Shown: in pieces, positions 14,960 to 41,578 of the stretch
Position numbering within the stretch: position 1 is the stretch's first letter
Layout of the letters: each line of letters begins with the position of its first letter
Assembly (NCBI GenBank): GCA_028821455.1
Contig: JAPPGE010000022.1
Location: forward strand, 26,201 to 90,200
Reading direction: 5' to 3'
DNA: 64,000 nt
Source of the DNA: a bacterium
GTDB taxonomy: Bacteria > Pseudomonadota > Alphaproteobacteria > SP197
The notes under the pieces: model-generated
Seen by the model: the letters and a program-made list of their open reading frames with translations, nothing else
The model's database searches: none
What the model was told of the DNA's origin: nothing
Made by a program: the position numbers and the translations under genes

Positions 14960-15601
14960 ATGGTGAAGCTCGATATTCTGCAGAGGGTCTACGAGTGCGG
15001 GGACCTCGAAGAGCTGCGCGGAATCTATGATTCCTGGGCCGAAACCTACGACGCGACAATACCCGGGGCACTGAACTACCGCGGTCATGAATACATTGTC
15101 GATGCCGTGCGTCCCCATCTTGGCGACGACGCCAGGATTCTTGATGCCGGGGCTGGCAGCGGCATGGTCGGACTGGCAGCGGCACGGGCGGGGTTCACCC
15201 ACGTCGACGCCATGGATCTCTCGGCGGGCATGCTGGAAGTTGCGAGGGACCGCGGTGTCTATCGCGAGGTGCGGACCGGCGTTCTCGGCGAAGCGCTGGA
15301 CTATCCCGACAACGCCTATGATGCCGTTCTCAGTTCGGGTGTTTTCACGCCCGGCCATGCGCCGCCGGCCTCATTGGACGAAATCGTCCGTATCGTGAAA
15401 CCAGAAGGGCTTGTCTGCTTCACGTTGCGCCACGACCAGACTCCACCGGGGTTCATCGAGAAATTCGATGAACTCGCAGAAGCCGGATCGTGGCAGCAGG
15501 TGTCGGTGAGCGAGCCATTCCAGTCCATGCCGGGGGGCGAACCGGAGATCCGGCACCGGACCTGGCTCTTCCGGGTGACATCGGGACGCCCGGCAGCGTG
15601 A
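14960..15601 (+). CDS. Class I SAM-dependent methyltransferase (213 aa)
   Basis: ILDAGAGSGMVGLAAARAG is methyltransferase motif I. ATG at 14960. Divergent from the DmdA-like gene. Confidence 0.75.
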   Translation: MVKLDILQRVYECGDLEELRGIYDSWAETYDATIPGALNYRGHEYIVDAVRPHLGDDARILDAGAGSGMVGLAAARAGFTHVDAMDLSAGMLEVARDRGVYREVRTGVLGEALDYPDNAYDAVLSSGVFTPGHAPPASLDEIVRIVKPEGLVCFTLRHDQTPPGFIEKFDELAEAGSWQQVSVSEPFQSMPGGEPEIRHRTWLFRVTSGRPAA

Positions 15602-16278
15602 CGGGCGCGGACCCGGAGCCCGGACGACAGGTTCGCGTCTGGGATCGCCCGACGCGGGTGTTTCACTGGGTTCTCGTCGTCCTCTTCATCGTCTGCTATG
15701 TGAGCGGCGACCGTGGCAGGTTCGATATCCACGTCATTGCCGGCCAGGCCTTGCTGATCCTTGTCGTGGCGCGGATCATCTGGGGGTTCGTGGGCAGCGA
15801 TACCGCCCGGTTCCGCCACTTTCTGCGGCCCGTTGGCGAGATCGTGGCCCATGTGCGGTCCCTTGGTGAGCGACGGCCCGGCCACGATGCCGGTCACAAT
15901 CCCCTTGGAGGACTGTCCGTTGCCCTGATGCTGTTCGTTCTCGTCGTCCACATGGTGTCCGGGCTCTTTGCGGTGGATGTCGACGGATGGAACGAAGGGC
16001 CGCTGTCGCATGTCGTGAGCTACGAAGCGGCACGCAACGCCTCGGGCGTTCACGCCGTCACGGTCGACATACTGCTGGTGCTTGTCGCCCTCCATGTCGC
16101 GGCTGTCGGATTCCACTGGCTCTACAAGCGCGACAATCTCGTCCTTCCCATGGTGACGGGCCGCAAGCGACTTCCTCCGGAACGTGAGGCCCTGCGCCTC
16201 GTCCCGGATCTCTATGCCCTTGCCGCCCTCGCCGTTGCAGCTTCAGCCGTGCTCGGAGTGGTGTCGCTCGCCGGATAG
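15598..16278 (+). CDS. Cytochrome b561 family (CybB/YceJ-like di-heme membrane cytochrome)
   Basis: RVWDRPTRVFHWVLVVLF...HNPLGGLSVALM...LHVAAVGFHWLY; four TM helices with conserved His. The GTG start overlaps the methyltransferase stop (GTGA). Confidence 0.75.
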   Translation: MTGADPEPGRQVRVWDRPTRVFHWVLVVLFIVCYVSGDRGRFDIHVIAGQALLILVVARIIWGFVGSDTARFRHFLRPVGEIVAHVRSLGERRPGHDAGHNPLGGLSVALMLFVLVVHMVSGLFAVDVDGWNEGPLSHVVSYEAARNASGVHAVTVDILLVLVALHVAAVGFHWLYKRDNLVLPMVTGRKRLPPEREALRLVPDLYALAALAVAASAVLGVVSLAG

Positions 16279-16281
16279 CGT

Positions 16282-16755
16282 TCAGTGGTCCTCGGCGCGG
16301 AAGACCGAGTGACAGCCGCCGCACCCGTCGCGCCCAAGGGCCATGAAGGCCTCAGCCTGTGAGTCGCCATCTCCCGAAGCCAGCGCCGTCTCGAGCAGGG
16401 CCGCCCGCTCTCCCAGGAGCTGTGCCGCCATCTCGAAGTCCGACCAGTTCTCCCAGATGGCATCGAGGGCTCCGGTCCGCGGCAGGGCATCCACGCCGGT
16501 CCCCGGAGGGAAGAGCGGTGGAATGGCGGTGGCCGCGTCCTTCAGGACACCGGTTGCCGCTAGCGCCTCCTCCGCATCGTTGCGGCCGGAGAGGAAGCCC
16601 TTGATGGCCCGCATGGATTTTCCCATTTCCTTCATGACCACTTGGCGCTCCTGGCTCAGCCTCTCGGCCTCCTCGAGGCTGACGGCGTCGTCGCCTGACC
16701 AGGCTACCGATCCCAGCACAAGAGAGACAACCGCCGTCAGGATGGTCATACGCAT
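16282..16755 (-). CDS. Cytochrome c' (class II cytochrome c, Pfam PF01322), 157 aa with signal peptide
   Basis: MRMTILTAVVSLVLGSVAWS is the signal peptide. The C-terminal CGGCH heme-binding motif and four-helix-bundle layout are present. A GGAGGA ribosome-binding site precedes the ATG at 16755. Confidence 0.85.
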   Translation of the reverse strand: MRMTILTAVVSLVLGSVAWSGDDAVSLEEAERLSQERQVVMKEMGKSMRAIKGFLSGRNDAEEALAATGVLKDAATAIPPLFPPGTGVDALPRTGALDAIWENWSDFEMAAQLLGERAALLETALASGDGDSQAEAFMALGRDGCGGCHSVFRAEDH

Positions 16756-17033: not shown

Positions 17034-18479
17034 ATGAGCAGAGGCACCACCGTCTTTGCCGTGATCGTTTCCGTGCTGCTCATCGGCGCGGCCGGTGTGC
17101 TCAACATGCTGGCAAGGCAAGGCGGCGACGCGGTGTTCGCCGATGCGGTCGCGATGGCAACGGAGATTCGCGACAGCGTGCAGGAGACCGGGGCGTCGGC
17201 TGTCGATGGAGCCCTGGAGACGACATCACGGCTGGTGGCGGCCCTTGAATCCGTTCCCGACCTTACAGCCGATCTCGCTGAGGATGTGGTTGCATTGAGG
17301 GAAGGGTTGCAACAGAGAAGGCTCGTGATCGATGCCATCCGTGATGCGGATGCGGCACTCTCCGAATCGATCGATGCCTGGAGATCGGCAGTGGAATCGG
17401 CGGCCGGCGAAGCACCGGACCTTGTCGGGCTCACGGAGGACATGGACCGATACCTCACCGGGGCCGGCCCCGCTCCTCCACTTGATGCCGTGCGTTCCCA
17501 CGGCGATGTGACTCTTGTCGCGGCCGCAAACAGGCTGGTGTCTGAAAGGCGCGCTCTGGACGAGCTGCATCAGGGGCTGGCTTCCGACAGGGTGACCGGT
17601 GTGGCCGAGCAACTTGTCATGTCCCTGGAGATCGAGCGTGCCCGCCGGGCGCTTGTCGTGCGCAACTATGACGATGGTACGGTTGCCGCCCTCGGTGCTC
17701 TGGTGCTGTTCTGGGTTCTGCTCGGCATCCGCGGTCGCCGTCGCAGTGAGCCGGCGCAACAAAAGGCCGATCCCGTAACGGGAACACTGTTCATCCGCGG
17801 TACGGCGGCAGCGGTGGCGATGCGGGCGCAACGTCTCGCCTCGCACACCAATGCGCTCAGAGAGTCCCGCCAGAGACTTGAAAGCGCCATCGCGGAGGCC
17901 GGACTCGACCGGTCGCTCAATGACGATGCTCCCCTTCACCGGGAAGTGGAGGCGATGGATGGTCATCTCGCCACCCTGCGCGACGAAACCGGCGAACTGT
18001 CGGCTCTGGGCCAGCGTCTGTGGACTCTTGCCGGGGAGACAGCGCCGGCGTCGACGGCCAGTATCAACGCGTGCGTCAGGGAAGCACTCGAGGCGATCAG
18101 GGCAGGCCACCGGATTCCCGTCATGACGGAACTTGCCAATGTCGGTCATGTCAGGGGTGTGGCATCCGACATCGTGCTGGCCCTGACGGCCCTCATCGAA
18201 CGCGTCCTCACGGCCTCCCGGGTATCGGGACTGGACCACAGCGCCATTCGCGTCTTCACCACGGCCGGCGATGACCAGGTGCACGTCACCATCACCGGAG
18301 GCGCTCCGCTGCCGCGGTTGACGGAGCGCACGTTCAGGCCATCCGGCACCTCCCACGAGCTGGCGCTGGCCATCGCTCTCCTCAGGCGTCATGGCGGCAG
18401 CGTGACCCTGGGTTCGTCCATCGCCGGGGAAGCCTCGGCGCGCATATCCCTTGCCGCCGCATCGGGAGACCAGACATGA
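17034..18479 (+). CDS. Membrane sensor protein with a C-terminal histidine-kinase-like ATPase (HATPase_c) domain; 2 TM helices flanking a roughly 200-aa periplasmic domain; no clear H-box
   Basis: TM1 is VFAVIVSVLLIGAAGVL. TM2 is VAALGALVLFWVLLGI. At the C-terminus, DIVLALTALIERVL is N-box-like, VHVTITGGAPLP is G1-like, and GTSHELALAIALLRRHGGSVTL is G2-like. A GGGAGG ribosome-binding site precedes the ATG at 17034. The stop overlaps the next gene. Confidence 0.6.
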   Translation: MSRGTTVFAVIVSVLLIGAAGVLNMLARQGGDAVFADAVAMATEIRDSVQETGASAVDGALETTSRLVAALESVPDLTADLAEDVVALREGLQQRRLVIDAIRDADAALSESIDAWRSAVESAAGEAPDLVGLTEDMDRYLTGAGPAPPLDAVRSHGDVTLVAAANRLVSERRALDELHQGLASDRVTGVAEQLVMSLEIERARRALVVRNYDDGTVAALGALVLFWVLLGIRGRRRSEPAQQKADPVTGTLFIRGTAAAVAMRAQRLASHTNALRESRQRLESAIAEAGLDRSLNDDAPLHREVEAMDGHLATLRDETGELSALGQRLWTLAGETAPASTASINACVREALEAIRAGHRIPVMTELANVGHVRGVASDIVLALTALIERVLTASRVSGLDHSAIRVFTTAGDDQVHVTITGGAPLPRLTERTFRPSGTSHELALAIALLRRHGGSVTLGSSIAGEASARISLAAASGDQT

Positions 18480-20467
18480 AGGCGCTGCGCTTTCGGGTTC
18501 GCAACTATCGCAACATCGAGGACAGCGGCTGGGTGCCACTCGATCCGGTCACGGTCCTCGTCGGACGCAACGAGTCGGGAAAGACGTCCCTTCTGAAGGC
18601 ACTCAACAAGTTCAATCCGGGCACGGCGGAAACCTATGACGCCCAGCGCGAGTTTCCGCGTGACCGCTACACGCGCGACTACGTCCTTGCCGATTCCACG
18701 GGTGCGGAGTGGCCTGTCTGTTCCATCGAGTTCGAGATTCCGGAACAGCAGAAGAGCGATATCGCGACCCTGCTGGGCCCGGACCGGGCCGTACCCGAGA
18801 CGGTCATCGTCACGCGCCACTACGATGGCTCTCTCGGTTTTTCCTACATGCCGCAGATCGGAGCCAGACCGGCTCGGCCTGACCCTCTCATGGAGACCCT
18901 CGAGGATCTCGCGCTTTCGGACGACTCGTCGCGCCTGGCTGCATGGTCCAGCGCGTGGCACGACCGGTTCGCCGGACTTGATGACGTCACAAGCGCCACC
19001 GGCCGTGCCATGCTCTCAGAGATCGACGGCGAGATTTCCGGGCTCGATGATGAACGCCTCGGGGCTCTTGGCGCGATCGTCACCACGATGCTGCGGATGC
19101 CTTTCGGGAGCAGGGTGATCGATCATGTCAACGCCCTGGTGGAGCGCGAACTGCCGCGCCTCGTCTACTTCGAGAACTACGGCGTGCTCGACAGCGCCAT
19201 CTGGCTGCCGGAGATGTTGCGGGGCCTTGAACGCGAGGAACCGGAGCCGCGTTTTCGAACCGCGCTGGCGCTCTTTCGTCATGCGGGTCTTGATCCGCGG
19301 GACATCGCGGAACTCGCCGCCCCGGGCAGCAGGGCATCGGGCGAGGACATGCAACGCCAGATGGAGGAGCGGGCCATCCGGCTCAATGCCGCGTCGGTCG
19401 ACATCAGCCGTCGCTGTAGCGAGTTGTGGTCGCAGCGGCGCCATCGCATCCGCTATCACGTCGACGGAGACTATTTCCGCATCAGGGTTGCCGACGATTC
19501 GCTGGAGGATGTGGAGATCGAGCTGGAATCCCGCGGCAAGGGTTTCCAGTGGTTCCTCTCGTTCTTCCTCGTCTTTGCTGCGGAGTCCGAGGGCGGAATG
19601 GGCGATGCCATCGTTCTGCTGGACGAACCCGGTCTCAGCCTTCACCCGACGGCGCAACGCGAACTGCTCGTGTTCTTCGAGCATCTGTCGGAACAGAACC
19701 AGGTCATCTACACGACTCATTCACCCTTCCTTATCGACGGCGATCACCTCGACCGGGTGCGTCCGGTGTTCGAGGACGACACGGGCCATGCCCGCATCCT
19801 CAAGGGTTCGTGGCCCGCCCATCCGGAAACGGTGTTCGCACTCAAGGCGGCTGCCGGATATGCGATGTTCGATTCCCTTGCAGGACAGGATCGATCGCTG
19901 CTTGTCGAACAGGTCAGCGATGCTTGCTACCTGGAGGCGCTGTCGCGGCACTGTGGCCGGACCGGGAGGAGCGCGCTGGGCAATTCCGTCGACGTGGTGC
20001 CCTGCGGTGGCGCGGCCGTGTGCGGCTACCTGGCGTCACTTCTCATGGCCGAGAACCGTCGACCTCGTATCCTCTTTGACGGCACCGACGCTGCACGTCT
20101 TCGCCGGCACGGACTGGTGAGGGATCTTCTTGACGAGGGAGACAGCTCGATTGTTCTCCTCGACGAAGCCCTCGGCTGGTCCGGACATGATGTGTGCCTC
20201 GAGGACCTGTTTGGAGAGAGCATCATCCTCGAAGGCCTCGGGAATGCGACAGGGATCAGCCTGTCGCTTGCCGATGATGGACATCAGGCCGGTCTCGTCG
20301 GTCGGATCGAGAGCGCAGCGGCGGCGGCGAACATTGCGCTACCCCGCTCCTGGCGGCTGTCGACGGCCCTGGCGGTGACGTTGTCAGAGGCGTCCCTGCC
20401 GGATGACGTCCTCGATTCGGCCTCGCTTCTCTTCACCAAGCTTGCCGGTGACGGCCAGGGACGGTGA
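18476..20467 (+). CDS. OLD-family (overcoming lysogenization defect) ATPase-nuclease: N-terminal AAA_15/AAA_21 ABC-type ATPase plus C-terminal Toprim domain, 663 aa
   Basis: MKALRFRVRNYRNIEDSGWVPL, then Walker A VLVGRNESGKTSLL. IVLLDEPGLSLHPTAQRELL is the DEP/Walker B motif typical of OLD/YbjD. At the C-terminus, LVEQVSDACYLEAL (Toprim Glu), VVPCGG, and ILFDGTDAARL (DxD) fit Toprim_OLD. ATGA overlap with the upstream gene. Confidence 0.8.
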   Translation: MKALRFRVRNYRNIEDSGWVPLDPVTVLVGRNESGKTSLLKALNKFNPGTAETYDAQREFPRDRYTRDYVLADSTGAEWPVCSIEFEIPEQQKSDIATLLGPDRAVPETVIVTRHYDGSLGFSYMPQIGARPARPDPLMETLEDLALSDDSSRLAAWSSAWHDRFAGLDDVTSATGRAMLSEIDGEISGLDDERLGALGAIVTTMLRMPFGSRVIDHVNALVERELPRLVYFENYGVLDSAIWLPEMLRGLEREEPEPRFRTALALFRHAGLDPRDIAELAAPGSRASGEDMQRQMEERAIRLNAASVDISRRCSELWSQRRHRIRYHVDGDYFRIRVADDSLEDVEIELESRGKGFQWFLSFFLVFAAESEGGMGDAIVLLDEPGLSLHPTAQRELLVFFEHLSEQNQVIYTTHSPFLIDGDHLDRVRPVFEDDTGHARILKGSWPAHPETVFALKAAAGYAMFDSLAGQDRSLLVEQVSDACYLEALSRHCGRTGRSALGNSVDVVPCGGAAVCGYLASLLMAENRRPRILFDGTDAARLRRHGLVRDLLDEGDSSIVLLDEALGWSGHDVCLEDLFGESIILEGLGNATGISLSLADDGHQAGLVGRIESAAAAANIALPRSWRLSTALAVTLSEASLPDDVLDSASLLFTKLAGDGQGR

Positions 20468-21141
20468 ACGGCAGATTCGCCGTCTACTACACGCCTGCAA
20501 CCACGTCGGAACTGGCGCGATTCGCTACGGACTGGCTGGGCGGCAAGGCAGGAGCCGCCGCCGGCATTCCGGAAGACCTTCACCGCGACATCGTCCGCAT
20601 TCCCGCAGCGTACGGGTTCCATGCCACGCTGAAGGCCCCGTTTGCCCTCGCCCCGGAGGCCACCGGGGATGAACTCGCTACAGCTACCGCCGCCCTCGCC
20701 GCGGACTTTGCCGCCTTCAGGGCTCCGCCGCTGGATCTCGCCAATGTCGACGGGTTCCTTGCGCTCGTGCTTCGTGATCCATGTCCGGCAATGAACGACC
20801 TGGCCGCGGCCTGCGTGACGGAACTCGACCACTTCCGCGCGCCGTTGACCGACAGGGAAAGGGAACGCCGTGTCGCGCAAGGCCTGTCGGCGCGCCAGGA
20901 AGCGTTGCTCGACCGCTGGGGCTATCCGTTCGTCCTCGACGAATTCCTCTTTCACATGTCGCTGACCCGGCGTCTCGACGATGGTCTGCGCGATCGTATC
21001 GCCGGCTTCCTGGAACGCAGTATGGGCAATCTCATCGGGCGGCAGTGGTGCCTTGATTCCATCTCCCTCTTCCACCAGGCAACACGCGAAGAACCCTTCA
21101 CCATGAGGGCGCGCTTTCCACTCGGACATCTCGAAGGGTGA
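20464..21141 (+). CDS. 2H phosphoesterase superfamily protein (LigT / cyclic-phosphodiesterase-like, DUF1045-like), 225 aa
   Basis: Two H-x-[TS]-x motifs about 100 aa apart, GFHATLKAPF and FLFHMSLTRRL, are the 2H-family signature. The GTG start overlaps the OLD stop (GTGA). Confidence 0.75.
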   Translation: MNGRFAVYYTPATTSELARFATDWLGGKAGAAAGIPEDLHRDIVRIPAAYGFHATLKAPFALAPEATGDELATATAALAADFAAFRAPPLDLANVDGFLALVLRDPCPAMNDLAAACVTELDHFRAPLTDRERERRVAQGLSARQEALLDRWGYPFVLDEFLFHMSLTRRLDDGLRDRIAGFLERSMGNLIGRQWCLDSISLFHQATREEPFTMRARFPLGHLEG

Positions 21142-21170
21142 CGGATCCTCGACGTCCGGTCGCTCAGGGT

Positions 21171-21641
21171 TCAGCCTTCGATGAGCTTGCGGTAGCGGGT
21201 GAGCCACTGGGCGGCCAGTTCCGCCTCATCGGCGCCCAGGTCATAGGCTGGCGACACCACCATCTCTGCCGCGGTGATGGTGATGTCGAAGATTCCGCGC
21301 ATGCGGGGCTGCAGGTCCGGCCATTCGGTGAAGCGGGGCAGGAGGGCATCGAACTCCGGCGCACCACGTGCATGGTAAGAACCTCGGCCGCACACGCGCA
21401 CCGCCTTACGCCGGAACACATCGACAAAAGCGAGTTCGCAAGCCGGGTTGGCGGCGAGGTTGCGCTTCGTCCCCGGGGAGCGTAGGTCCGAAAAGACAAG
21501 CCGTACCGGGTCGAGCACGACGACGGTTCCCTTAGGTGAGACCGCGGGGGCGCCCTCCGGCGTCACCGTCGCCACCAGCGCCAACGTGTTTTCGCGGATG
21601 AGCATCGTCATTTCGGGCGTAAGCAAGGGGACAGTCTCCAT
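21171..21641 (-). CDS. Pyridoxamine 5'-phosphate oxidase-family FMN-binding protein
   Basis: METVPLLTPEMTMLIRENTLALVATVTPEGAPAVSPKG... is the PNPOx-like split barrel. cat at 21639-21641. Confidence 0.7.
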   Translation of the reverse strand: METVPLLTPEMTMLIRENTLALVATVTPEGAPAVSPKGTVVVLDPVRLVFSDLRSPGTKRNLAANPACELAFVDVFRRKAVRVCGRGSYHARGAPEFDALLPRFTEWPDLQPRMRGIFDITITAAEMVVSPAYDLGADEAELAAQWLTRYRKLIEG

Positions 21642-22100
21642 CGGGGCGTGGCGGGTCGGTTTCGGACCCGGACGGCAACCGATGTAGGCCCATGGTGCCC
21701 TGAGCGCAAGAACCGGCACGACCCTTGGGTGCACGGCCGCCAGATGTACAAGGAGCGCAACCAGATCGAGGTAAGCGGTGGAGTGGATTGCGCCAGGCGA
21801 AGCTCTGGAGAGGAGGAAGCGATGAGCCAGAGACCCTTCATCGCAGGCCAGCGGGTTCGACTCCCGCCCGGTAAAGGCGCAGTCCGCCGGCCGGGACCGA
21901 GTGTTGCGTGGCGCGTGGTAACGCGCGTCGCGAAGCGTACACAGGGGGTGGCAAAGCGACGAACATTGAGCCTCGAAACATCCAATGCTGGTGCCTTCAT
22001 CGTTCCATTAGTGGGGGCAGCACCGGAAGCGCCGCCAAGGCGAGGCGCGACGGACCGTCTCGGGGCGGATTTTGTCGATCAGATGATCCTTTGAGACGGT

Positions 22101-22171: not shown

Positions 22172-23083
22172 ATGTGCGGAATTGCCGGTATCCTGTTGAA
22201 GAATGGGGACAGTGGCATCGATACCGGGACGGCGCTGATCGACATGCTCGACGGCTGTCAGCACCGGGGTCCGGACTCCACTGGGTTCGCCCTTTATGAG
22301 AGCGGCGAGGAAGGACAGCTGAAGCTGCGGTTCCATGTCGGCTCCGACAACGAGGCGGGCGACGCCGTTGCGGCCCTCAAGGCGGTCTTCGACGAACATG
22401 GCGCCGAGGTCATCGAGGAAGAGCGCATCGCCGGCAGCTATCGCGTCGTGGTGCGTTTCAGCGGCGACTTGCAGAAGTTCTCGTACGCCGTGGAACACGC
22501 CGCCAAGGTGGTGTCGATCGGCGAGAGCCTGGAGATCGTGAAGGACGTGGGCGGCGCCCATGATGTCGATGACACCTATGACGTCCATCTGTTCAGGGGC
22601 TCGCATGGCCTGGGACATGTGCGCCTTGCCACCGAATCGGATGTCAAGCCGGAGGCCTCGCACCCCTTCTGGGCGACCGGGTTTGCCGATGTCGCGATTG
22701 TCCACAACGGACAGATCACGAACTACTGGAAGATGCGCCGTCGTCTCGAGCGCCGCGGGTTCGCATTCGCGACCGACAACGACAGCGAACTCATTGCCGT
22801 CTATCTCGCCGACAAGATGAACCAGGGGATTCCCCTGAAGGACTCCCTGGCCTCGTCCATTGACGACATGGACGGGACATTCTCCTTCCTCGTCTCGACC
22901 CGCGACGAGATCGGCTACGCGAAGGACCGGCTTGCTGCCAAGCCGATGATCATGTTCGAGAACGACGACCTCATTGCCATTGCCTCTGAAGAGGTCTCGC
23001 TCAATCGCCTGTTCCCGGGCCGCGCGCTCGATACCCGTGAACCGCCTCCGGGAAGCTATAGAACATGGTCACGGTCGATCTGA
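22172..23083 (+). CDS. Class II (Ntn) glutamine amidotransferase subunit of a glutamate-synthase-like enzyme (GltB N-terminal domain homolog; GlxB/MgsA-like)
   Basis: MCGIAGILLKNG... The N-terminal nucleophile Cys after Met is the Ntn GATase_2 hallmark. Confidence 0.85.
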   Translation: MCGIAGILLKNGDSGIDTGTALIDMLDGCQHRGPDSTGFALYESGEEGQLKLRFHVGSDNEAGDAVAALKAVFDEHGAEVIEEERIAGSYRVVVRFSGDLQKFSYAVEHAAKVVSIGESLEIVKDVGGAHDVDDTYDVHLFRGSHGLGHVRLATESDVKPEASHPFWATGFADVAIVHNGQITNYWKMRRRLERRGFAFATDNDSELIAVYLADKMNQGIPLKDSLASSIDDMDGTFSFLVSTRDEIGYAKDRLAAKPMIMFENDDLIAIASEEVSLNRLFPGRALDTREPPPGSYRTWSRSI

Positions 23084-25038
23084 AGGATCTGTCGACCCGC
23101 GAAGCCAACGAGAGCATTCGCGAGGCGGCAGCACGGGGCGAGACCATCGAGGTTCTCAATCCCGACGCTCGCCACCACATCGGTGTCGGCGTCATCCACC
23201 CGGTTGACATCCATGTCCGCGGATCCGCCGGATACTTCTGCGCCGGACTGACCGACACTCCGCGCTTTCACATCGAACGCAACGCCGGCTGGGGGCTGGC
23301 AGACAACATGTACCGGGGATCCGTCGTCGTTGGCGGCAACGCCGGCGCCATAGCCGGGGTGGCGATCCGCGGCGCAGAGGTCGTGATCCGCGGCAACATG
23401 GGGTCACGGGCCGGACAGGTCATGAAGAAGGGGACGCTGCTGTGCTGCGGGAACGCCAACTTCATGGCCGGCTACATGATGTATGGCGGACGCATGATCA
23501 TTCTCGGCGAGTCAGGCGAGCGTCTCGGCGAGGACATGACGGGAGGCGAGATCTTCCTTGGCGGTGACCTGGTGTCACTGGGGTCCGATGCCATGGAGAC
23601 CGATATCGCGGAAGACGAGATCGATGACATCCGGGCCTTTCTCGACCGCTATGAGATTCCCTTCCGGGGCAGCCTCCGCAAGATCGTGAATGCCGGAAAG
23701 AAACTGCGCTACGGCACCCCGGAGCGACAGGTGCGCTCGATTCCCTACTTCAACTTTTCCGGCGACAGCGGCTACTGGAATCACAAGGTCCAGGAAGACG
23801 TCTACATCAAGTCCCAGATCGGCCGCTACCGGGTGAGGGGATACGGCGGCGCCCGCGAGTTGCCACACCTTTCCGACCTTGCCTTTGCCAGGGACATCAT
23901 TCCAGGTGCCCTCGGCGACGATCCGGTCTCGAGGGTCCGGATGCACACGCTGATCGGCGGCAAGAACGGCGCCAAACCCCTTGACCTGACGATGCCTGTC
24001 CTCATTGCTCCGATGAGCTATGGCGCTCTTTCCCGCTCCGCCAAGCAGGCGGTCGCCATCGCCTCGGGCATGGCGGGAATCGCCGAGAACACCGGGGAAG
24101 GCGGCATGAGCGACGCCCAGCGCGATGCGGCAGGTCAGCTCATATTCCAGATGCTTGGTGGCCGTCTGGGCTGGAACATCCACGACATGAACCGGGCGGA
24201 CGGCCTGGAGATCTACATTTCCCAGGGCGCAAAGCCGGGGTTCGGCGGTCAGCTCATGGCCAAGAAGGTGACGAAGGAACTGGCCGAGATCCGCGGCATC
24301 CCGGCCGGCATCGACCTTCGTTCGCCATCACGCCATCCCGACATCCTCGGCGCCGACGATCTCGTCATCAAGGTCGAGGAGTTGCGCGAGGCGACGGGCT
24401 ACCGTGTGCCGGTCAGCGTCAAGCTCGGGGCGGGTCGGATTCACGACGACATCAAGATTGCCGTCAAGGACGGCTTCGACTTCGTCGAGCTCGACGGCAT
24501 GCAGGGTTCGACCGGCGCCGGTGGCGCCGAGGTGATGGAGTATGTCGGCATCCCGACCATCTCTGCCATCTGCGAGGCGGAACGCGCCCTTGCGTCCATC
24601 GGCCGGCGCCAGGACATCGAGATTGTCCTCATGGGCGGGCTGAGAGACGGGGTCGATGCCGTCAAGGCTTTGTGCCTGGGGGCCGACGCCGTGGCGCTGG
24701 GGACCGCCGCCATCATTGCCGGGGGCTGCATCGCCTGCATGCAGTGTCATGTCGGCCAGTGCGTGACCGGTATTGCCACCCAGGATCCGGAGCACGAGAA
24801 GCGCTACAAGCCCGAGATCGAGGCGCAGCACATCTACACTTTCCTGGAAAGCGTGCGCTGGCAGATAGCGGCCGTCACACGGGGACTGGGATACGATGAC
24901 GTACGCGGCCCCTGCCGCGACGATCTTGTGGCTCTCACGCCCGAGGCGGCGGAGATCACCGGCCTTCCCCTCTGTCCCGAACGCCGGGATTCGGGGCTTC
25001 CCGAAATCAATGCGGCAATGGAACGGGCTCTTCGATGA
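23065..25038 (+). CDS. Fused GXGXG domain + FMN-binding glutamate synthase domain (GlxC-GlxD / MgsB-MgsC-like), 657 aa
   Basis: The N-terminus has GXGXG repeats (VVVGGNAGAIAGVAI..VIRGNMGSRAG). The C-terminus has the FMN-domain motifs AENTGEGGMSD and GIATQDPEHEKR, and CIACMQC for the 3Fe-4S cluster region. Confidence 0.85.
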   Translation: MVTVDLKDLSTREANESIREAAARGETIEVLNPDARHHIGVGVIHPVDIHVRGSAGYFCAGLTDTPRFHIERNAGWGLADNMYRGSVVVGGNAGAIAGVAIRGAEVVIRGNMGSRAGQVMKKGTLLCCGNANFMAGYMMYGGRMIILGESGERLGEDMTGGEIFLGGDLVSLGSDAMETDIAEDEIDDIRAFLDRYEIPFRGSLRKIVNAGKKLRYGTPERQVRSIPYFNFSGDSGYWNHKVQEDVYIKSQIGRYRVRGYGGARELPHLSDLAFARDIIPGALGDDPVSRVRMHTLIGGKNGAKPLDLTMPVLIAPMSYGALSRSAKQAVAIASGMAGIAENTGEGGMSDAQRDAAGQLIFQMLGGRLGWNIHDMNRADGLEIYISQGAKPGFGGQLMAKKVTKELAEIRGIPAGIDLRSPSRHPDILGADDLVIKVEELREATGYRVPVSVKLGAGRIHDDIKIAVKDGFDFVELDGMQGSTGAGGAEVMEYVGIPTISAICEAERALASIGRRQDIEIVLMGGLRDGVDAVKALCLGADAVALGTAAIIAGGCIACMQCHVGQCVTGIATQDPEHEKRYKPEIEAQHIYTFLESVRWQIAAVTRGLGYDDVRGPCRDDLVALTPEAAEITGLPLCPERRDSGLPEINAAMERALR

Positions 25039-27551
25039 CGGATGCCAATCTTCTGCCGGAGCAACTCGCGGACGACACCGCGGACCGGCATTTCGTGCCC
25101 GCTCCCTGCCAGATCGCCTGCCCGGTCGGCACGGACGCGCCATCCTACATCGCCCACATCTGGGAAGGCAGGTTCGCCGAGGCCTTCGAGGCCATCACGG
25201 CGACCAACCCGTTCAGTTCGATCTGCGGGCGCGTCTGCGACGCACCCTGCGAGCCGGCATGTCGGCGTACGGCAAGCGACGGCCCCGTGCAGATCCGCAA
25301 TCTCAAGCGCTTTGTCATGGACAAGCTCGGAGCCGAGTGGGTGCCGCCGGCGGCGCACGTCACCCGTGACGAGAGTATCGGCATCGTCGGGGCCGGGCCG
25401 GCCGGACTGGTGGCGGCCCACGACCTTGCCGTCGCCGGATTCAGGGTCGATGTCTATGAGATGACCGACCGTCCCGGCGGCATGATGATCTGGGGCATTC
25501 CGGCGTTTCGCCTGCCTGCCGGCACCCTGAACGAGGACATGGAGAGGCTGGAGGCCCGCTGTCCCGGACTCACCATCCACACGAATGTTGCGCTGGGCCG
25601 GGACATCACGCTCGCCGACCTCAAGGAACGCCACGATGCGGTGGGGCTCACCATCGGTTCCTGGTGGGGCAAGACCATGGGGATCTCCGGCGAGGCCGAC
25701 GACCGCGTGATCGACGGCGTCGAGTTCCTGCGCCGGGTCAACGCCGGAGAACGCCCGGAAATGCCGGCGAAAGTCGTCGTCGTTGGCGGCGGCGATGTCG
25801 CCATGGATGCCTGCCGAGCCGCCCTGCGCCTTCCGGGATGCGAGGAGGTCACGGTCATCTACCGGCGCGGCCCGGAGGATATCCCGGCGCGAAAGATCGA
25901 ACTCGAGGGCGCCATCGAGGAAGGTATCGAGTTCATCTACAACACGCAGCAGGTCGGGGTCCTTGCCGACAACGAGGATCGCTTGAGACTGCGCTGTGTG
26001 CGCACCACGGCCGGCGAACCTGATGCAGATGGCCGTCGTCGGCCCGTCACGGTCGAGGGATCCGAGCACGACATCATGTGTGGCATGGTCATTGCCGCGG
26101 TCGGTCAGTACGGCGCCTGCGACGATCCCGCCACCCGGGACCTCATGTCCGGCGATCGCGTGCGGACCGACTGGGAGACCATGCGGACCGATGATCCGCA
26201 GGTCTTTGCCGCCGGTGACGGAGCCTTCGGGGGCTCCACCATCGTCATGGCCATGAGCCATGGCCAGCGGCTGGCCTACTACATCAAGGCGTGGCTCGAT
26301 GGCATCGACGATCCCGTTCCCTATCGTACGCCGTGGCGGACACGGCGTGTGCCGGTGGCCCAGGATCTCAAGTGGGAACTCCTGGGCCTGCACCATCCGC
26401 CGTTCCACGGCGTCGGCGACAATCCGGTCGCATTCCCGGAAATCGAGTCGACCTACACCTGGGAGGAGGCGCGCAACGAGGCGGCGCGATGCTATCGCTG
26501 CGACGCCGAGACCGGCTCGGCCGATTACTCTGTCGCCAACCGGGAGGACATCTTCCTGATGGCGCGGATGAAGCGCGAGGACACGTCGCGCCAGGCCGCC
26601 ATGCTGACCAAGCGCCTGCGGTCGCGCGACAACCCGTTTCCTCAAGATCGGCCGGCCACCGTCGACGATCTGGTGTTCCTGCCGGCCAATCTGTCGAGAC
26701 TGGTGATCGACCCCTATCGCGAGGCCTGCAAGGTAGCGACGGACCTGGGATCCGGACGCATGGAGGTGGCGCAGCCTTTCTTCGTGACCGGCTTTGACAA
26801 CGCACCGGCGGAAGTGAAGCGAGGGGTCGGACAGGGAATATCGCAAGCGGCGGCAGGCTACATCGGCATGCAGCCGATTGCCGACGATGTGGCGTGGTTG
26901 CAGCTGGTGGTGGAGGGGCAGATTGCGTCGCGGGAGGACGCCGCGGGTCTCATTCATGTCATCGGTCCCCGCTTCGAAGCGCCAACGAGGATCCGGCGGC
27001 TTCGCGAGGACCAGATCCTCGGCCTTGCCGTCTCCCACGGGAGCGCTCTCGAGGATGCCATCGGGTTTGCCCTTGATCAGGACCTCGACGTCCTGCTGGT
27101 CAACGGCAACATTGCCACCGGGCGCGACTGGCCGGAACTCACCGGCGCCCCTGACCTCACGCTCATGCGCGACACCATTGCCTGCCTGCGTCGGCTCAAC
27201 ATGGAAGAGGAGATCGACATCCTCTGGTTCGGCGGTCTGCGTTCCGGCACGGATGCCGCCAAGCTCATCGCCATGGGCGCGAAGTCGCTGGTCATGGGCA
27301 TGACCGTGGCCCTGGCGGCCGGGGCCGAGTTTGACGAGTCCCATCGGCTTCGGTTTGCCCCCGATTTTACGGCCGATGAGTGCTCCCGGGCGGTTGCCAA
27401 CATCCTGAAATCCGCGGTGGGCGAGGCGTCGATGATGGCCCGTTGCACCGGCAAGACCAATCTCCACAACTTGGAACCCGAGGACCTGCGCGCCCTCACG
27501 CTCGCCACGGCAGAGGCCACCGGACTGGTTCTCGCCGGACACACGTACTGA
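25035..27551 (+). CDS. GltD-like NAD(P)H-dependent flavoprotein (4Fe-4S + FAD/NAD binding) fused to a C-terminal TIM-barrel-like domain, 838 aa
   Basis: CPVGTDAPSYI...ICGRVCDAPCEPAC are the Fe-S cysteines. IGIVGAGPAGLVAAHDLA and VVVVGGGDVAMD are the two Rossmann motifs of GltD/DPD-PreT. The C-terminal roughly 350 aa parallel the GltB central/FMN barrel. ATGA overlap with the upstream gene. Confidence 0.85.
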   Translation: MTDANLLPEQLADDTADRHFVPAPCQIACPVGTDAPSYIAHIWEGRFAEAFEAITATNPFSSICGRVCDAPCEPACRRTASDGPVQIRNLKRFVMDKLGAEWVPPAAHVTRDESIGIVGAGPAGLVAAHDLAVAGFRVDVYEMTDRPGGMMIWGIPAFRLPAGTLNEDMERLEARCPGLTIHTNVALGRDITLADLKERHDAVGLTIGSWWGKTMGISGEADDRVIDGVEFLRRVNAGERPEMPAKVVVVGGGDVAMDACRAALRLPGCEEVTVIYRRGPEDIPARKIELEGAIEEGIEFIYNTQQVGVLADNEDRLRLRCVRTTAGEPDADGRRRPVTVEGSEHDIMCGMVIAAVGQYGACDDPATRDLMSGDRVRTDWETMRTDDPQVFAAGDGAFGGSTIVMAMSHGQRLAYYIKAWLDGIDDPVPYRTPWRTRRVPVAQDLKWELLGLHHPPFHGVGDNPVAFPEIESTYTWEEARNEAARCYRCDAETGSADYSVANREDIFLMARMKREDTSRQAAMLTKRLRSRDNPFPQDRPATVDDLVFLPANLSRLVIDPYREACKVATDLGSGRMEVAQPFFVTGFDNAPAEVKRGVGQGISQAAAGYIGMQPIADDVAWLQLVVEGQIASREDAAGLIHVIGPRFEAPTRIRRLREDQILGLAVSHGSALEDAIGFALDQDLDVLLVNGNIATGRDWPELTGAPDLTLMRDTIACLRRLNMEEEIDILWFGGLRSGTDAAKLIAMGAKSLVMGMTVALAAGAEFDESHRLRFAPDFTADECSRAVANILKSAVGEASMMARCTGKTNLHNLEPEDLRALTLATAEATGLVLAGHTY

Positions 27552-27562
27552 AGCGACCGTAT

Positions 27563-28096
27563 TCAGGTTCTCGTGGCGGGTGTCAGATCGATGACCCTGG
27601 AGTCGTATCCGCAGGCCGAAAGGAAGCGCAGGAGATCGCGCGGATGAAGCGCCGTCGTCCGGTTGTTGACGAGCGGATGCAGGTTGACGAGGTCCGCTTC
27701 CATGATGGCGCGATCGATGTAGACACCGATGTCCTCGCCTGTGTCATTGATGAGCGCAAGGGGCGTCACGGCCCCGGGCTCGACCCCGAGAATGTCACGC
27801 ACCCTTTCGGGGCGGGCGAAGCTCAGGCGTGCCGAGCCGATGAGTCCGGCGAGGGACTTGAGGTCGAGTTCGCGTGATTCCTCGACCACGGTGAGCCACA
27901 GCCGCGCCTTCTTGTCCTTGAAGAACAGTGTCTTGCAGTGGATTCCGGGAAGGCTGCCGCGCAACGCGCGGTTGTCGGCCACGGTATGGACGGGTTCATG
28001 TTCGTGGGTCGTGCACGGGATGCCGAGCTCCTTGAGCCTGGCGATCAGGTCGCCGGGCGTTGCCCTGCCCGGCATCGTCGTCGTCGGTCGGTTCAT
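27563..28096 (-). CDS. YbaK/ProX-family aminoacyl-tRNA deacylase
   Basis: HEPVHTVADN...GIHCKTLFFKDKKARLWLTVV matches the YbaK/EbsC deacylase domain. The internal Met is preferred. The track ORF starts at a TTG at 28183. Confidence 0.7.
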   Translation of the reverse strand: MNRPTTTMPGRATPGDLIARLKELGIPCTTHEHEPVHTVADNRALRGSLPGIHCKTLFFKDKKARLWLTVVEESRELDLKSLAGLIGSARLSFARPERVRDILGVEPGAVTPLALINDTGEDIGVYIDRAIMEADLVNLHPLVNNRTTALHPRDLLRFLSACGYDSRVIDLTPATRT

Positions 28097-28228
28097 GGGG
28101 CATGTGGTCCGGTCTGGTGGTGAATCAGGCCCCGGCTTTCCGGCGGTCGATAAATGTCCTACACTTCCGGGGACCTGATGCAAGGGATCCTGAGCCCTTG
28201 TTGATCACTTCTGGGAGGATCCAGGGAG

Positions 28229-29677
28229 ATGACTGATCAACTAGCTTCGCTTACCGTCATCTTCACGGAGTTCTACTACTGGGTCACGGTCGTCATCATG
28301 TTCCTGATCCACGTAGGGTTCTGTGTCTATGAGGTCGGCGCGTCGCGCCGCAAGAATCTTCAACACACGCTGATGAAGAACACGATGCTGATCCCGCTGG
28401 TCACCATCACGTTCTTCTATTTCGGATGGTGGATCTACTTCGCCTTCCCCCACTTCCCGCTGATGGGCGGATTTCTCGATGCGCCCTTCGCCGTGCCGTG
28501 GTCCGAACTCATGGGCACCCATATGGGCGGTGCGGTCACCGTCCAGGCTGCGAGCCTGACGTCGGATGACACCATGTTCTGGGCCCGCATCAACGGGGTC
28601 TTCTGGGCAGCCTTCCTGCTGTTCTCATGGACCACCGCGTCCATCGTCTCCGGTGCCGTCATCGAACGCATCAAGACACAGGCGTTCCTGCTCGTGGTAG
28701 TTCTTGTCGGTTCGGTGACATGGATCATCGATGCCGCCTGGGGCTGGAGCTGGAATGGCTGGATGGTGCAGCTGTGGGGCTATCACGATGCCTACGCATC
28801 CTCGGTGGTGCACGGCATTGCCGGTGGCTCGGCGCTGGGCATCCTGGTCGTGCTGGGTCCCAGACTCGGCAAGTTCGCCGCCGATGGGACACCGCGCAAC
28901 ATACCCCAGAACAATCCCTGGCTCGTCACGGTCGGGCTGTTCCTGATCTATACCGGGTTCTGGGGATTCTATGCCGCGTGCAACATTCCCATCATCGACT
29001 ACACCGCTGATGTCATGGGAGCCGAGGGAGCAGCCTTCTTCACGGCGACCAACATCTACCTGACACCGACATCGCTTTCCGCCATTACCTTCAACTTCCT
29101 GATGTCGCTTTCGGGCGGTCTCCTGGCAGGCTATCTGGTCTCGAGGGGTCAGCCGTTCTGGAGCTATTCGGGAGGTCTTGCAGGCGTCATCTGCGCCTCT
29201 GCTGGCAACGATCTCTATCATCCGATCGAGTCAATGGTCATCGCCATGGTCGGTGTGTGGATCGCCTACAAGATGCACCACTGGGTGGAGAGGAGGTTCA
29301 AGATCGACGATGCGGTGGGCGCCGTGGCCGTGCACGGTTACGCCGGTTTCGCCGGGACGGTGATCGCGGGCTTCATGCTCTGGGGTTATCCCTCCAACGT
29401 CGCCTACGAAGCGACGGGCTGGTTCGGCAATACCGACGGTGTGGCATCCATCAATCCGCTCGGCCAGTTCCTGGGCGCCGTGCTGATGTTCTGGGGTCTT
29501 GGCTTCCTGCCCTGCTGGGTTCTGGCCAAGGTTCTCAATGGCATGGGCTGGTTGCGTGTGCCGCGCGAAGTCGAACTTGCCGGTCTCGATACCCATGACT
29601 ACGGGGATGCCTTCCCGTACCACGCCTATCGTGACACGGCGATGGAAGACGTCGACCGCGATCTCGCAAAGAGCTGA
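28229..29677 (+). CDS. amt: Ammonium/methylammonium transporter (Amt family), 482 aa
   Basis: 11 TM helices with Amt signature residues (twin His, HGYAGFAGT). No glnK is adjacent. Confidence 0.9.
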   Translation: MTDQLASLTVIFTEFYYWVTVVIMFLIHVGFCVYEVGASRRKNLQHTLMKNTMLIPLVTITFFYFGWWIYFAFPHFPLMGGFLDAPFAVPWSELMGTHMGGAVTVQAASLTSDDTMFWARINGVFWAAFLLFSWTTASIVSGAVIERIKTQAFLLVVVLVGSVTWIIDAAWGWSWNGWMVQLWGYHDAYASSVVHGIAGGSALGILVVLGPRLGKFAADGTPRNIPQNNPWLVTVGLFLIYTGFWGFYAACNIPIIDYTADVMGAEGAAFFTATNIYLTPTSLSAITFNFLMSLSGGLLAGYLVSRGQPFWSYSGGLAGVICASAGNDLYHPIESMVIAMVGVWIAYKMHHWVERRFKIDDAVGAVAVHGYAGFAGTVIAGFMLWGYPSNVAYEATGWFGNTDGVASINPLGQFLGAVLMFWGLGFLPCWVLAKVLNGMGWLRVPREVELAGLDTHDYGDAFPYHAYRDTAMEDVDRDLAKS

Positions 29678-36625: not shown

Positions 36626-36700
36626 ATTGGATGGAATTGGATGGACAATTGGATGTCGATGCGGCATTCTTGAATTGGATGAAATTGGATGGATGAATGG
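36626..36700. repeat. Tandem or interspersed short direct repeats, 5 copies of (A)ATTGGATG(G), immediately upstream of fic
   Basis: ATTGGATGGAATTGGATGGACAATTGGATGTCGATG...GAATTGGATGAAATTGGATGGATGAATGG, in a low-GC segment. Confidence 0.7.
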
Positions 36701-37777: not shown

Positions 37778-38302
37778 TCAGGGCGTCGCCCGGTACATGT
37801 GGTAGCGGCCCTGGGCGATACCTCTGGGGAGATCGAGTGCGGTCCAGGCGGGGTTGGGAAGGGGTTGATCGCCCATGACTATGGCGCCGCCAGCTAGAAG
37901 GCGCGGCAGGGCTTCGGCGAGCCAGATGGCGAGGTCGAGACTCGTCTGACGATCGCCTGAACCGATATCGGCGTGGGCAAGGATGGCCGCCGGTCCGAGA
38001 CGGCGCGCGGCGAGGGGGATTGTCTCAGCGAGATCACCAAGAAACATGTGGCCGTCGTCGGGGATGCAGTCTGGATGGGCGGCGATCCGGCGATCGAAAC
38101 AGTAGATGTCCCGTTCCGGAAAGAGACAGCGCAGGTGGTCGTACGTGCGGCCGTTGCCGAGCCCGATTTCAAGGATGTGACCGGGCCGGCCGTCGACAAG
38201 GCTGGCGGCCTCGTTGAGGCACAGACGCTGGGCCTCGAGGCGGCGGATGACGCTGTCGAGCCGGCTCACTCTTTCAGGTGCCGGTCCGGGTGGCCATGGC
38301 AT
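37778..38302 (-). CDS. Class I SAM-dependent methyltransferase (small)
   Basis: ILEIGLGNGRT is motif I. Confidence 0.6.
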   Translation of the reverse strand: MPWPPGPAPERVSRLDSVIRRLEAQRLCLNEAASLVDGRPGHILEIGLGNGRTYDHLRCLFPERDIYCFDRRIAAHPDCIPDDGHMFLGDLAETIPLAARRLGPAAILAHADIGSGDRQTSLDLAIWLAEALPRLLAGGAIVMGDQPLPNPAWTALDLPRGIAQGRYHMYRATP

Positions 38303-38732: not shown

Positions 38733-38750
38733 GAGTCCTGCTCCCCCATG

Positions 38751-41429: not shown

Positions 41430-41578
41430 GGTCCCGGCCCGGCAATCCGTTCCCGAGGATACTAGGTTCGCTTGGCGTCGGATCAAGGCTCTGCGAGTGT
41501 GCCGGCATTCATCCGGTGACGACAGGATGGCGAATGTGGCAGGATGCGCGCCGTTTTTTGGAAACAGACGGGTGTGTC

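Follow-up and report, generated by a model that had tools for sequence, protein, structure and literature searches.

An OLD-family ATPase paired with a degenerate membrane sensor in one alphaproteobacterial lineage, possibly repurposed from phage defence

Bacterial OLD-family proteins are currently filed as defence nucleases according to their neighbours: they stand alone, beside a helicase, in a retron or beside AriB. The complete OLD two-metal site consists of a Glu, an Asp four residues later, a DxD motif and an [S/T/D/E]xE motif, and its six ligands are conserved across homologs of class 1 (PMC7049728). When its expression is induced, the chromosomal YbjD of E. coli confers anti-phage phenotypes that do not depend on its Toprim domain (PMC13261556), and the archaeal OLD-family ATPase Cran1 acts in cell-cycle progression, apparently a non-defence role (PMC12796447). 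Here we describe three overlapping genes (open reading frames ORF1, ORF2 and ORF3) in a 64,000-nucleotide stretch of alphaproteobacterial DNA, referred to below as the window (GCA_028821455.1, contig JAPPGE010000022.1). ORF2 places an OLD protein in a new context, with a conserved, histidine-kinase-like membrane sensor as partner, often within a pilus-assembly cluster, and with nuclease ligands lost and the ATPase perfectly kept. We read the trio as a vertically inherited, lineage-specific chromosomal operon in which an OLD ATPase has been repurposed together with an envelope pseudo-kinase, the DUF1045 gene being a late and dispensable passenger, and we give this reading an even chance of being right. 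The three genes are as follows.

17034..18479, + strand: ORF1, 481 aa, two-transmembrane (TM) membrane protein, degenerate member of a DAHL+HATPase_c sensor family (predicted pseudo-histidine-kinase)
18476..20467, + strand: ORF2, 663 aa, OLD-family ABC ATPase with a C-terminal Toprim fold and a remodelled metal-binding site
20464..21141, + strand: ORF3, 225 aa, DUF1045, 2H phosphoesterase superfamily, catalytic motifs intact

An earlier note on this DNA, made from its letters, had described the three ORFs as chained by an ATGA at 18476 and a GTGA at 20464. Both are present (acATGAagg at the ORF1/ORF2 junction and cgGTGAacg at the ORF2/ORF3 junction), each a stop/start overlap of 4 nt, and a Shine-Dalgarno-like GGGGAGG lies 5' of ORF1. 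Base composition was even across the scan (GC ~0.64-0.65). Matches in the promoter and terminator scan were not above those of shuffled controls, and the repeat scan found no direct or inverted repeats flanking the trio that would suggest a mobile element. The note's domain calls were also right: an OLD-type ATPase with a Toprim fold (AAA_15/AAA_21, 6p74), a 2H enzyme of the DUF1045 family (PF06299) and a histidine-kinase-like sensor. What it missed is the true conserved unit, ORF1 plus ORF2, which has relatives inside a Tad-pilus-like cluster.

The ATPase of ORF2 is of the OLD type throughout. ORF2 matched the Pfam families AAA_15 (1e-25) and AAA_21 (5e-21), and its closest solved structure was 6p74, the class 1 OLD of Thermus scotoductus (Ts OLD). 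Foldseek ranked 6p74, GajA and the C-terminal regions of class 2 OLDs at the top; the AlphaFold2 (AF2) model, built from an 18-sequence alignment, had a mean predicted local distance difference test score (pLDDT) of 62, with the N-terminal ATPase below 50, and only its C-terminal part and the top Foldseek matches were used. The ATPase motifs were 100% conserved in the clade of genomes that share this locus (the window clade) and invariant or nearly so in the wider family.

18563..18586, + strand: Walker A GRNESGKT of ORF2 (residues 30-37), K36 invariant in 193/193 family members
19610..19645, + strand: Walker B and D-loop of ORF2, IVLLDEPGLSLH (D383, E384 and H390; Walker B LLDEPG at residues 381-386), invariant or near-invariant in clade and wide family and aligning with the Walker B region of Ts OLD
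19709..19726, + strand: H-loop YTTHSP of ORF2, H415 invariant in 193/193

In PADLOC (PADLOC-DB v2), the AriA, Old and GajA models covered ATPase parts of ORF2 only; the best were AriA models (5.8e-26), which aligned with residues 331-420 only, the Walker B/H-loop region. Neither ORF1 nor ORF3 matched a defence family, and no known defence system was matched in all its components, the matches being generic ones to the ATPase region of ORF2; the earlier note had anticipated as much. Plasmid and phage collections held remote relatives only (27-32% identity). A PhnK/PhnL-like ATPase of C-P (carbon-phosphorus) lyase, which would explain the DUF1045 neighbour, was considered for ORF2 and rejected, as all its profile and structure matches were of the OLD/AAA_15 type.

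The C-terminal domain of ORF2 keeps the Toprim fold and departs from the family at the metal site.

19883..20221, + strand: Toprim core of ORF2 (residues 470-582), ligand positions E478, D482, D535, T537, C574 and E576

Residues 470-660 form a beta-alpha-beta Toprim pattern in the AF2 model (pLDDT 70-93). The profile alignment to 6p74 passes through LLVEGxxD and CGG and sets LLVEQVSD of ORF2 on LLVEGYGD of Ts OLD, so that E478/D482 correspond to E377/D381. By the order and spacing of the motifs, D535-G-T537 of ORF2 stands at DxD and C574-L-E576 at [S/D/E]xE. In Ts OLD, metal A is held by E377, D431 and D433 and metal B by D381, S478 and E480, and P2 Old single mutants at the ligand positions tested abolished the lethal effect in vivo, one of them only partly (PMC7049728). 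We compared these positions across 193 aligned family members, 20 from the window clade and 173 from the wider family. Position 537, the second Asp of DxD (equivalent to Ts D433), was T, S or A in 20/20 clade members and D in 168/173 (97%) of the wider family. Position 574, the first metal-B ligand (equivalent to Ts S478 and P2 D541), was C, R or S in 20/20 of the clade and E in 162/173 (94%) of the wider family. Position 535, the first Asp of DxD, was G in 3/20 against D in 172/173. Two of the six Toprim metal ligands are therefore replaced in ORF2, and E478, D482, D535 and E576 remain. The full hallmark set of OLD nucleases claimed in the earlier note holds for the ATPase motifs and the Toprim fold and fails for the nuclease site, where 'ILFDGTD' reads D-G-T, not DxD, and residue 574 is Cys. 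The Pfam family OLD-like_TOPRIM (PF20469) matched neither ORF2 nor any member of its clade; many relatives of ~50% identity do match it. The ratio of nonsynonymous to synonymous substitution rates (dN/dS) in the Toprim domain was 0.08-0.21, and every domain of ORF2 was constrained. The purifying selection on the Toprim core indicates that the domain is retained for something, perhaps for binding, or for a weakened or altered catalysis.

ORF1 has the plan of a membrane-bound sensor kinase. Its AF2 model (pLDDT 74) places an all-helical periplasmic domain between TM1 and TM2, and after TM2 a two-helix hairpin followed by an alpha/beta domain.

17049..17117, + strand: TM helix 1 of ORF1 (residues 6-28), hydrophobic stretch VFAVIVSVLLIGAAGVLNMLA, AF2 helix 3-28
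17118..17672, + strand: periplasmic all-helical domain, shortened DAHL-like (residues 29-213), AF2 helices 32-182, pLDDT 75-93
17673..17732, + strand: TM helix 2 (residues 214-233), holding the invariant W227
17772..18032, + strand: DHp-like helical hairpin (residues 247-333), AF2 helices 247-289 and 299-333, no conserved phospho-acceptor His
18051..18461, + strand: GHKL/HATPase_c-like domain (residues 340-476), ATP-binding boxes degenerate

ORF1 has no significant Pfam match of its own, neither to PF19443 nor to PF02518, and its membership of the DAHL family is for that reason by profile only. Its ortholog P0265 still matches PF02518, and distant relatives (22-32% identity, ~600 aa) carry both DAHL PF19443 (1e-24 to 1e-30) and HATPase_c PF02518. 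When the alignment of the ORF1 clade was compared by hhalign with that of the DAHL+HATPase_c sensors of Tad-like clusters, the probability was 100% (E=3.5e-47) and residues 1-481 were covered; the periplasmic domain aligns with the DAHL region of these relatives, deletions included. An exhaustive HMMER search of 1.8 billion representative proteins found only 41 relatives of ORF1, and literature searches on the DAHL domain found nothing relevant. The earlier note had left a DHp domain in question. A DHp-like hairpin is present in the AF2 model, and by Foldseek the cytoplasmic ~240 residues match the DHp+CA regions of HK853, WalK and DivL (4q20) at E~1e-8 to 1e-7.

The catalytic features of a kinase are missing from this fold. 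No column for an invariant or near-invariant His was found in the hairpin in alignments A5 and A7; in place of H272, orthologs have R or E/L and Tad-cluster relatives have R. The H-box candidate 'ASHTNALRES' was rejected, its His not being kept even in orthologs of 42-43% identity. The N box reads IERV, with Arg in place of Asn, G1 reads TITGGAP, with the DxGxG motif gone, and the G2 box GxGxGL has been removed by a 6-residue deletion. The relatives of ORF1 retain the N (ENS), G1 (DNGxGI), F and G2 (GMGIGL) boxes, and ORF1 (481 aa) is shorter than these ~600-aa proteins. In L001, L002, L084 and L087 (L numbers denote related loci), gene calls within +/-10 kb included none with a REC domain. 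The description of ORF1 in the earlier note, a two-TM sensor with no clear H-box and no adjacent response regulator, therefore stands. Because the ATP-binding boxes are lost, ORF1 is, to judge by its motifs, a pseudo-kinase descended from a His-less GHKL sensor.

ORF3, by comparison, looks like an ordinary member of its family. It matches DUF1045 (PF06299) over its full length (5.1e-54) and reaches 238.4 bits on TIGR03223, just below the cut-off of 248.95.

20620..20628, + strand: first HxT motif of ORF3, H53-A-T55, with H53 and T55 invariant in alignment A4
20953..20961, + strand: second Hx[T/S] motif of ORF3, H164-M-S166, with H164 invariant and residue 166 S here and T in the other aligned sequences

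The DUF1045 gene has been described as an accessory to C-P lyase, its function unknown and its usual place beside phnN (PMC3266647; bioRxiv 10.1101/2024.07.19.604230), and it adjoined phnM, phnN or a phosphonate transporter in 86% of operons surveyed (PMC3266647). Outside the window clade we likewise found it overlapping phnM and adjoining phosphonate transporter genes (L086). No phn genes were found at our locus, or among 20 window ORFs (21-61 kb) scanned with Pfam. ORF3 has been cleanly deleted in L008 and has decayed in L013, with ORF1 and ORF2 intact in both. The earlier note had allowed that the 2H gene might belong to a phosphonate cluster elsewhere and adjoin its neighbours here by accident. 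That doubt is half borne out: outside the clade the family is phn-linked, and inside it the gene has gone from L008 and decayed in L013. Its suggestion of a role for the 2H enzyme in processing nucleic acid ends fared less well. P2 OLD products carry 5'-phosphate and 3'-OH ends, not cyclic phosphates (PMC12445682), and such ends fit poorly with a 2H partner, so we rejected the idea that ORF3 heals the ends left by Toprim cleavage.

Scanning one genome per species, we obtained 80 loci encoding ORF2 relatives, and homologs of ORF1 and ORF3 stood beside the OLD gene only in 12 loci with ORF2 identity of at least 63%. The trio-bearing genomes (~12 at species level) are all metagenome-assembled genomes (MAGs) labelled 'Alphaproteobacteria bacterium' and form one uncultured group. 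Going by record names, we take most related loci to be from marine or sponge-type metagenome assemblies. A trio module that is widespread or enriched in defence islands, as the earlier note envisaged, was thus not found: the arrangement is confined to one clade with the same metabolic flanks. Upstream these are GcvT, methyltransferase, cytochrome b561 and cytochrome c' genes, and downstream glutamate-synthase-like genes; they are housekeeping genes, without any defence-island context at the clade loci, and their synteny is held at dS>1. ORF1 lies directly upstream of ORF2, overlapping it or within 1 nt, in all clade genomes sampled, and the trio arrangement with its 4-nt overlaps recurs across the ~12 species-level genomes at dS up to >1, which is more than chance. 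A 489-aa gene upstream of the OLD gene in L003 was rejected as an ORF1 homolog, as it has no similarity to ORF1 and resembles the HsdS-type (Methylase_S) neighbours of wide-family genes.

All three ORFs are intact in most of these genomes. Close pairs gave dN/dS values of 0.10-0.15 for ORF2, 0.24-0.35 for ORF1 and 0.25-0.36 for ORF3, with dS >1 for the deepest pairs; ORF2, the most constrained of the three genes, remained at 0.10-0.25 over pairs with dS up to >1. Shared flanks and low dN/dS at dS >1 point to long vertical inheritance under selection.

The origin of the ORF1-ORF2 pair is indicated by its relatives. Members of the wider OLD family (~700 aa, 40-51% identity to ORF2, many matching PF20469) lack a constant partner. 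They follow hsdS genes or stand amid methylases, DarT, AbiTii, SIR2 and Schlafen-like genes, as class 1 OLD genes of defence islands typically do, and UvrD domains occur in only 2/32 of their downstream neighbours. Closest to the window clade is a sister lineage of OLDs with 47-54% identity and lengths of 755-834 aa; all seven examined sit inside a Tad/Flp-pilus-like cluster. The OLD gene directly follows a sensor gene in L088, L089, L105 and L106, where the order is Flp pilin, TadA/B/C-like, CCP_MauG, DAHL+HATPase_c sensor, OLD, prepilin peptidase and RcpC; in L034, L035 and L049 it lies a few genes further along the same cluster. Each of the seven has at least one Toprim ligand substitution. 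In a neighbour-joining (NJ) tree the window clade and the Tad-linked OLDs grouped in 75/100 bootstraps, nested in the wide family.

A sensor-side metagenome scan, for which the narrower ORF1 alignment A6 was used, gave 13 further loci with this type of Tad-like cluster. In these clusters the CCP_MauG gene always adjoins the sensor gene, and the two overlap. The slot behind the sensor varies, being vacant or taken by a dCache-like gene (~450 aa) or an OLD-like gene; the sensor is a core gene of the cluster and the OLD gene is facultative. DUF1045 is absent from the Tad-cluster relatives, which makes the ORF1-ORF2 pairing older than ORF3. Tad genes were not found in the 64-kb window by tblastn, nor among the 20 ORFs scanned with Pfam.

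In full, the cluster runs Flp, a ~590-aa protein, TadA, TadB, TadC, CCP_MauG, the His-less DAHL+HATPase_c sensor, the variable slot, prepilin peptidase, RcpC, a ~635-aa unknown protein and TPR/SPOR genes. It occurs at L088:1611-16528, L089:1685-16296 and L106:52-10475, and also in L091-L101, L034, L035 and L049, from marine or sponge-type metagenomes. At L096:7088-9082, after the sensor and a dCache-like gene, there is a second, seemingly separate OLD-like ATPase (31% identity to ORF2), in which the second Asp of DxD in Toprim is missing too (VDLS). At L100:10831-15109 the DAHL sensor gene was matched over its N-terminal ~277 residues only; a segment of ~4 kb lies between it and the prepilin peptidase gene, and the gap holds two TbpB_B_D-like (transferrin-binding-protein-like) lipoprotein genes. 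A gene for a c-type haem protein always stands beside the sensor gene, cytochrome c' in the window clade and CCP_MauG in the Tad-like clusters.

What the comparisons show directly is how the genes are arranged, their homologies, their motifs and their place in the tree, the synteny, the purifying selection and the losses of ORF3. From these we infer a physical interaction between ORF1 and ORF2, a reduced nuclease activity, and in outline the kind of signal and the physiological output. ORF1 and ORF2 would descend from a pair in a Tad/Flp-pilus-like cluster, in which a His-less DAHL+GHKL membrane sensor, coupled translationally to the gene of a periplasmic di-haem peroxidase, was followed by an OLD ATPase. 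In the window clade the pilus genes would have been lost from the locus and the ATP boxes from the sensor, with the OLD protein keeping its ABC ATPase and losing two Toprim ligands. ORF1 may sense conditions at the envelope or merely anchor there. The adjoining c-type haem protein genes suggest a periplasmic haem or redox signal as its input, and this is only a hint. The DHp/GHKL-like cytoplasmic module of ORF1 would bind the ORF2 dimer and gate its ATP cycle at the membrane. ORF2 itself would work as a switch or scaffold driven by ATP, its nicking at most attenuated, and not as a processive defence nuclease. ORF3 is a predicted active phosphonate-type 2H cyclic-phosphodiesterase, probably co-transcribed with the pair only in the window clade and non-essential to it.

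Several observations weigh against this reading. The bacterial OLD proteins that have been characterised serve in defence or conflict, and the wider family of ~50% identity lies in defence islands; with the family rooted there and the Toprim domain still constrained, a defence role keeps some probability. The inactivation of the Toprim domain is suggested by its motifs, and of the six ligand positions only E478 and D482 were placed by profile alignment to 6p74, with 535, 537, 574 and 576 mapped by motif order and spacing. Four of the six ligands are retained, as are the conserved D538 and D577, and the domain is under purifying selection, so ORF2 may possibly be an altered but active nuclease. 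The Tad-like clusters L092-L095 contain no OLD gene, and the OLD gene could therefore be a hot-spot insertion and not a working component. The grouping of the window clade with the Tad-linked OLDs is supported at only 75% in a simple NJ tree, and all genomes compared are MAGs. Finally, most clade genomes preserve the 4-nt overlap of ORF2 and ORF3, and this speaks for ORF3 expression being coupled.

The alternative closest to the original interpretation is a new anti-phage or abortive-infection system, in which the sensor would detect envelope perturbation or phage adsorption and activate the OLD nuclease, with the 2H enzyme as off-switch or co-effector. The nesting of ORF2 in the stand-alone OLD family of defence islands, beside hsdS, methylases and DarT, AbiTii, SIR2 and Schlafen-like genes, would be expected of such a system, as would the conserved tight operon with its overlapping codons. 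Tad pili are known phage receptors, and a pilus-linked OLD could on that account guard against pilus-dependent phages. The anti-phage phenotypes of YbjD, seen on induction even without Toprim (PMC13261556), count on the same side. However, the flanks of the trio are housekeeping genes in synteny at dS>1, with no defence island, flanking repeats or signs of a mobile element. The two metal ligands are lost clade-wide, the ATP-binding site of the sensor appears dead and its phospho-acceptor His is missing. Neither the intact OLD nuclease nor the new defence system of the earlier note is supported in the form given there. ORF1 and ORF3 have no PADLOC match, ORF3 is lost in some genomes and the trio is confined to one clade; we consider this explanation unlikely. 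A split of functions as in PARIS has a still smaller chance. ORF2 would then be an AriA-like scaffold that holds and releases ORF3, and the 2H effector would act on RNA 2',3'-cyclic ends, 2'-5' linkages or a cyclic-nucleotide signal. AriA models were indeed the best PADLOC matches of ORF2 (over residues 331-420 only), the Toprim ligands are degraded where both HxT/S motifs of ORF3 are kept, and the ORF2/ORF3 overlap is conserved in most of the clade. Yet ORF3 has been deleted (L008) or has decayed (L013) beside intact and conserved ORF1 and ORF2, the ORF1-ORF2 pairing predates it, and it is a typical phn-type DUF1045 (238 bits on TIGR03223) without a defence-family match. Toprim products with 5'-P/3'-OH ends also mean that the partner makes no cyclic-phosphate substrate (PMC12445682).

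The trio could also be a non-functional relic, the remnants of a lost Tad-like cluster and a lost phn operon brought together by chance and decaying neutrally. Catalytic motifs have been lost in both ORF1 and ORF2, ORF1 is shorter than its 600-aa relatives, ORF3 is lost in some genomes, and the scans of the window for Tad genes (tblastn; Pfam, 20 ORFs at 21-61 kb) and phn genes (the same Pfam scan) were empty. Neutral decay is nevertheless at odds with the finding that most of the ~12 genomes retain all three ORFs intact, with dN/dS values that stay well under 1 in pairs whose dS reaches >1, with constraint on every domain of ORF2 and 100% conservation of its ATPase motifs, and with the preserved start/stop overlaps; we regard it as very improbable. 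The reading of a repurposed ATPase operon can be extended, with more doubt. On this tentative extension, the OLD lineage may have left phage defence to become an accessory of an undescribed Tad/Flp-pilus-like machine that has a His-less DAHL-GHKL sensor and a di-haem peroxidase of its own, the window locus being a stripped-down sensor-ATPase descendant that captured a 2H enzyme. Should this hold, it would be the first OLD lineage in bacteria with a role outside defence, and an example of an OLD ATPase regulated by a membrane sensor.

The link of OLD-type ATPases to a sensor-bearing Tad-like cluster was the unexpected lead of this analysis. The locus offers a concrete case for a role of the OLD ATPase beyond the nuclease, to be set beside YbjD and Cran1, and for the domestication of a defence gene. 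It also advises caution in annotation: an unusual enzyme beside an OLD gene need not signal a new defence system, and DUF1045 is not confined to phosphonate operons.

The surroundings of the trio in the window are listed here.

15598-16755: cytochrome b561 (+ strand) and cytochrome c' (- strand) genes, directly upstream of ORF1 in every clade genome
16282..16755, - strand: cytochrome c' gene, divergent from ORF1; PF01322 at the same position in L001, L002, L084 and L087 (context only)
21171-21734, - strand: PNPOx-like gene 3' of ORF3
22172-29677: glutamate-synthase-like trio (GATase, GXGXG/Glu_synthase, Fer4_20/Pyr_redox), then an ammonium transporter gene
36697-37755: Fic/DOC domain fused to a winged-helix DNA-binding domain
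38214-39215 and 40269-41465: the next ORFs, without Pfam match
47040-48170, + strand: ORF without Pfam match
49328-50239, - strand: ORF without Pfam match
50258-51292, - strand: ORF without Pfam match
51289-53172, - strand: ORF without Pfam match
53133-54224, - strand: ORF without Pfam match

The segment at 21150-22060 differs among clade genomes: neither L008 nor L012 has the PNPOx-like gene, and L001/L084 carry genes for an acyl-CoA dehydrogenase and a cupin in its place. The glutamate-synthase-like three-gene set is kept downstream of ORF1-ORF3 in the clade genomes examined. The five long ORFs at 47040-54224 are consecutive and had no Pfam match at 1e-5; GC skew is negative over this region.

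We compared the locus with the described systems that it resembles in part. Literature searches found no paper describing a pairing of OLD with a 2H phosphoesterase, in agreement with the earlier note, which named no described system of the trio's composition. Gabija, with a class 2 OLD, has an adjacent UvrD/PcrA/Rep-like helicase (GajB), whereas the gene downstream of ORF2 is DUF1045. Retrons with a class 3 OLD involve an adjacent reverse transcriptase and an ncRNA, and no reverse transcriptase was found among the neighbours ORF1, DUF1045, cytochrome c' and the PNPOx-like gene. PARIS (AriA with AriB, a DUF4435/Toprim protein) is similar in having an OLD-related ABC ATPase with a separate partner, and its AriA models fit ORF2 best in PADLOC. 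It differs in that our locus has no AriB/DUF4435 gene, ORF2 retains a fused Toprim fold, and the partners are a predicted pseudo-kinase and a 2H enzyme.

ORF3 agrees with DUF1045/TIGR03223 of C-P lyase operons in its full-length match and both 2H motifs; unlike that family's usual members it falls below the cut-off and follows an OLD gene, with no phnM, phnN or phosphonate transporter gene beside it. Compared with two-component histidine kinases, ORF1 has the DHp+CA fold and lacks the conserved His, intact N/G1/G2 boxes and a nearby response regulator. Caulobacter DivL is a closer parallel, since ORF1 likewise combines a DHp+CA fold with the absence of a phosphorylatable His and would probably act by protein-protein contacts. 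However, ORF1 has a DAHL-type periplasmic domain and has lost its ATP boxes, and its proposed partner is an ABC ATPase, not a response regulator.

Cran1 resembles ORF2, at the family level at which the two were compared, as a vertically inherited OLD-family protein that is apparently not antiviral; it differs in being an active nickase, archaeal, chromatin-associated and without a sensor partner. The closest systems are the class 1 OLDs (P2 Old, Ts OLD 6p74, Vibrio cholerae OLD and E. coli YbjD/OldB). ORF2 shares their architecture, an ABC ATPase with an inserted helical domain followed by Toprim, it is nested phylogenetically among the stand-alone OLD genes of defence islands, and like YbjD it has a conserved chromosomal position. 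Class 1 OLDs, however, are single genes with six conserved metal ligands, whereas ORF2 has two of these replaced, lies outside a defence-island context and has a conserved upstream partner, coupled to it in translation, in ORF1, with a homologous sensor upstream in the sister lineage as well.

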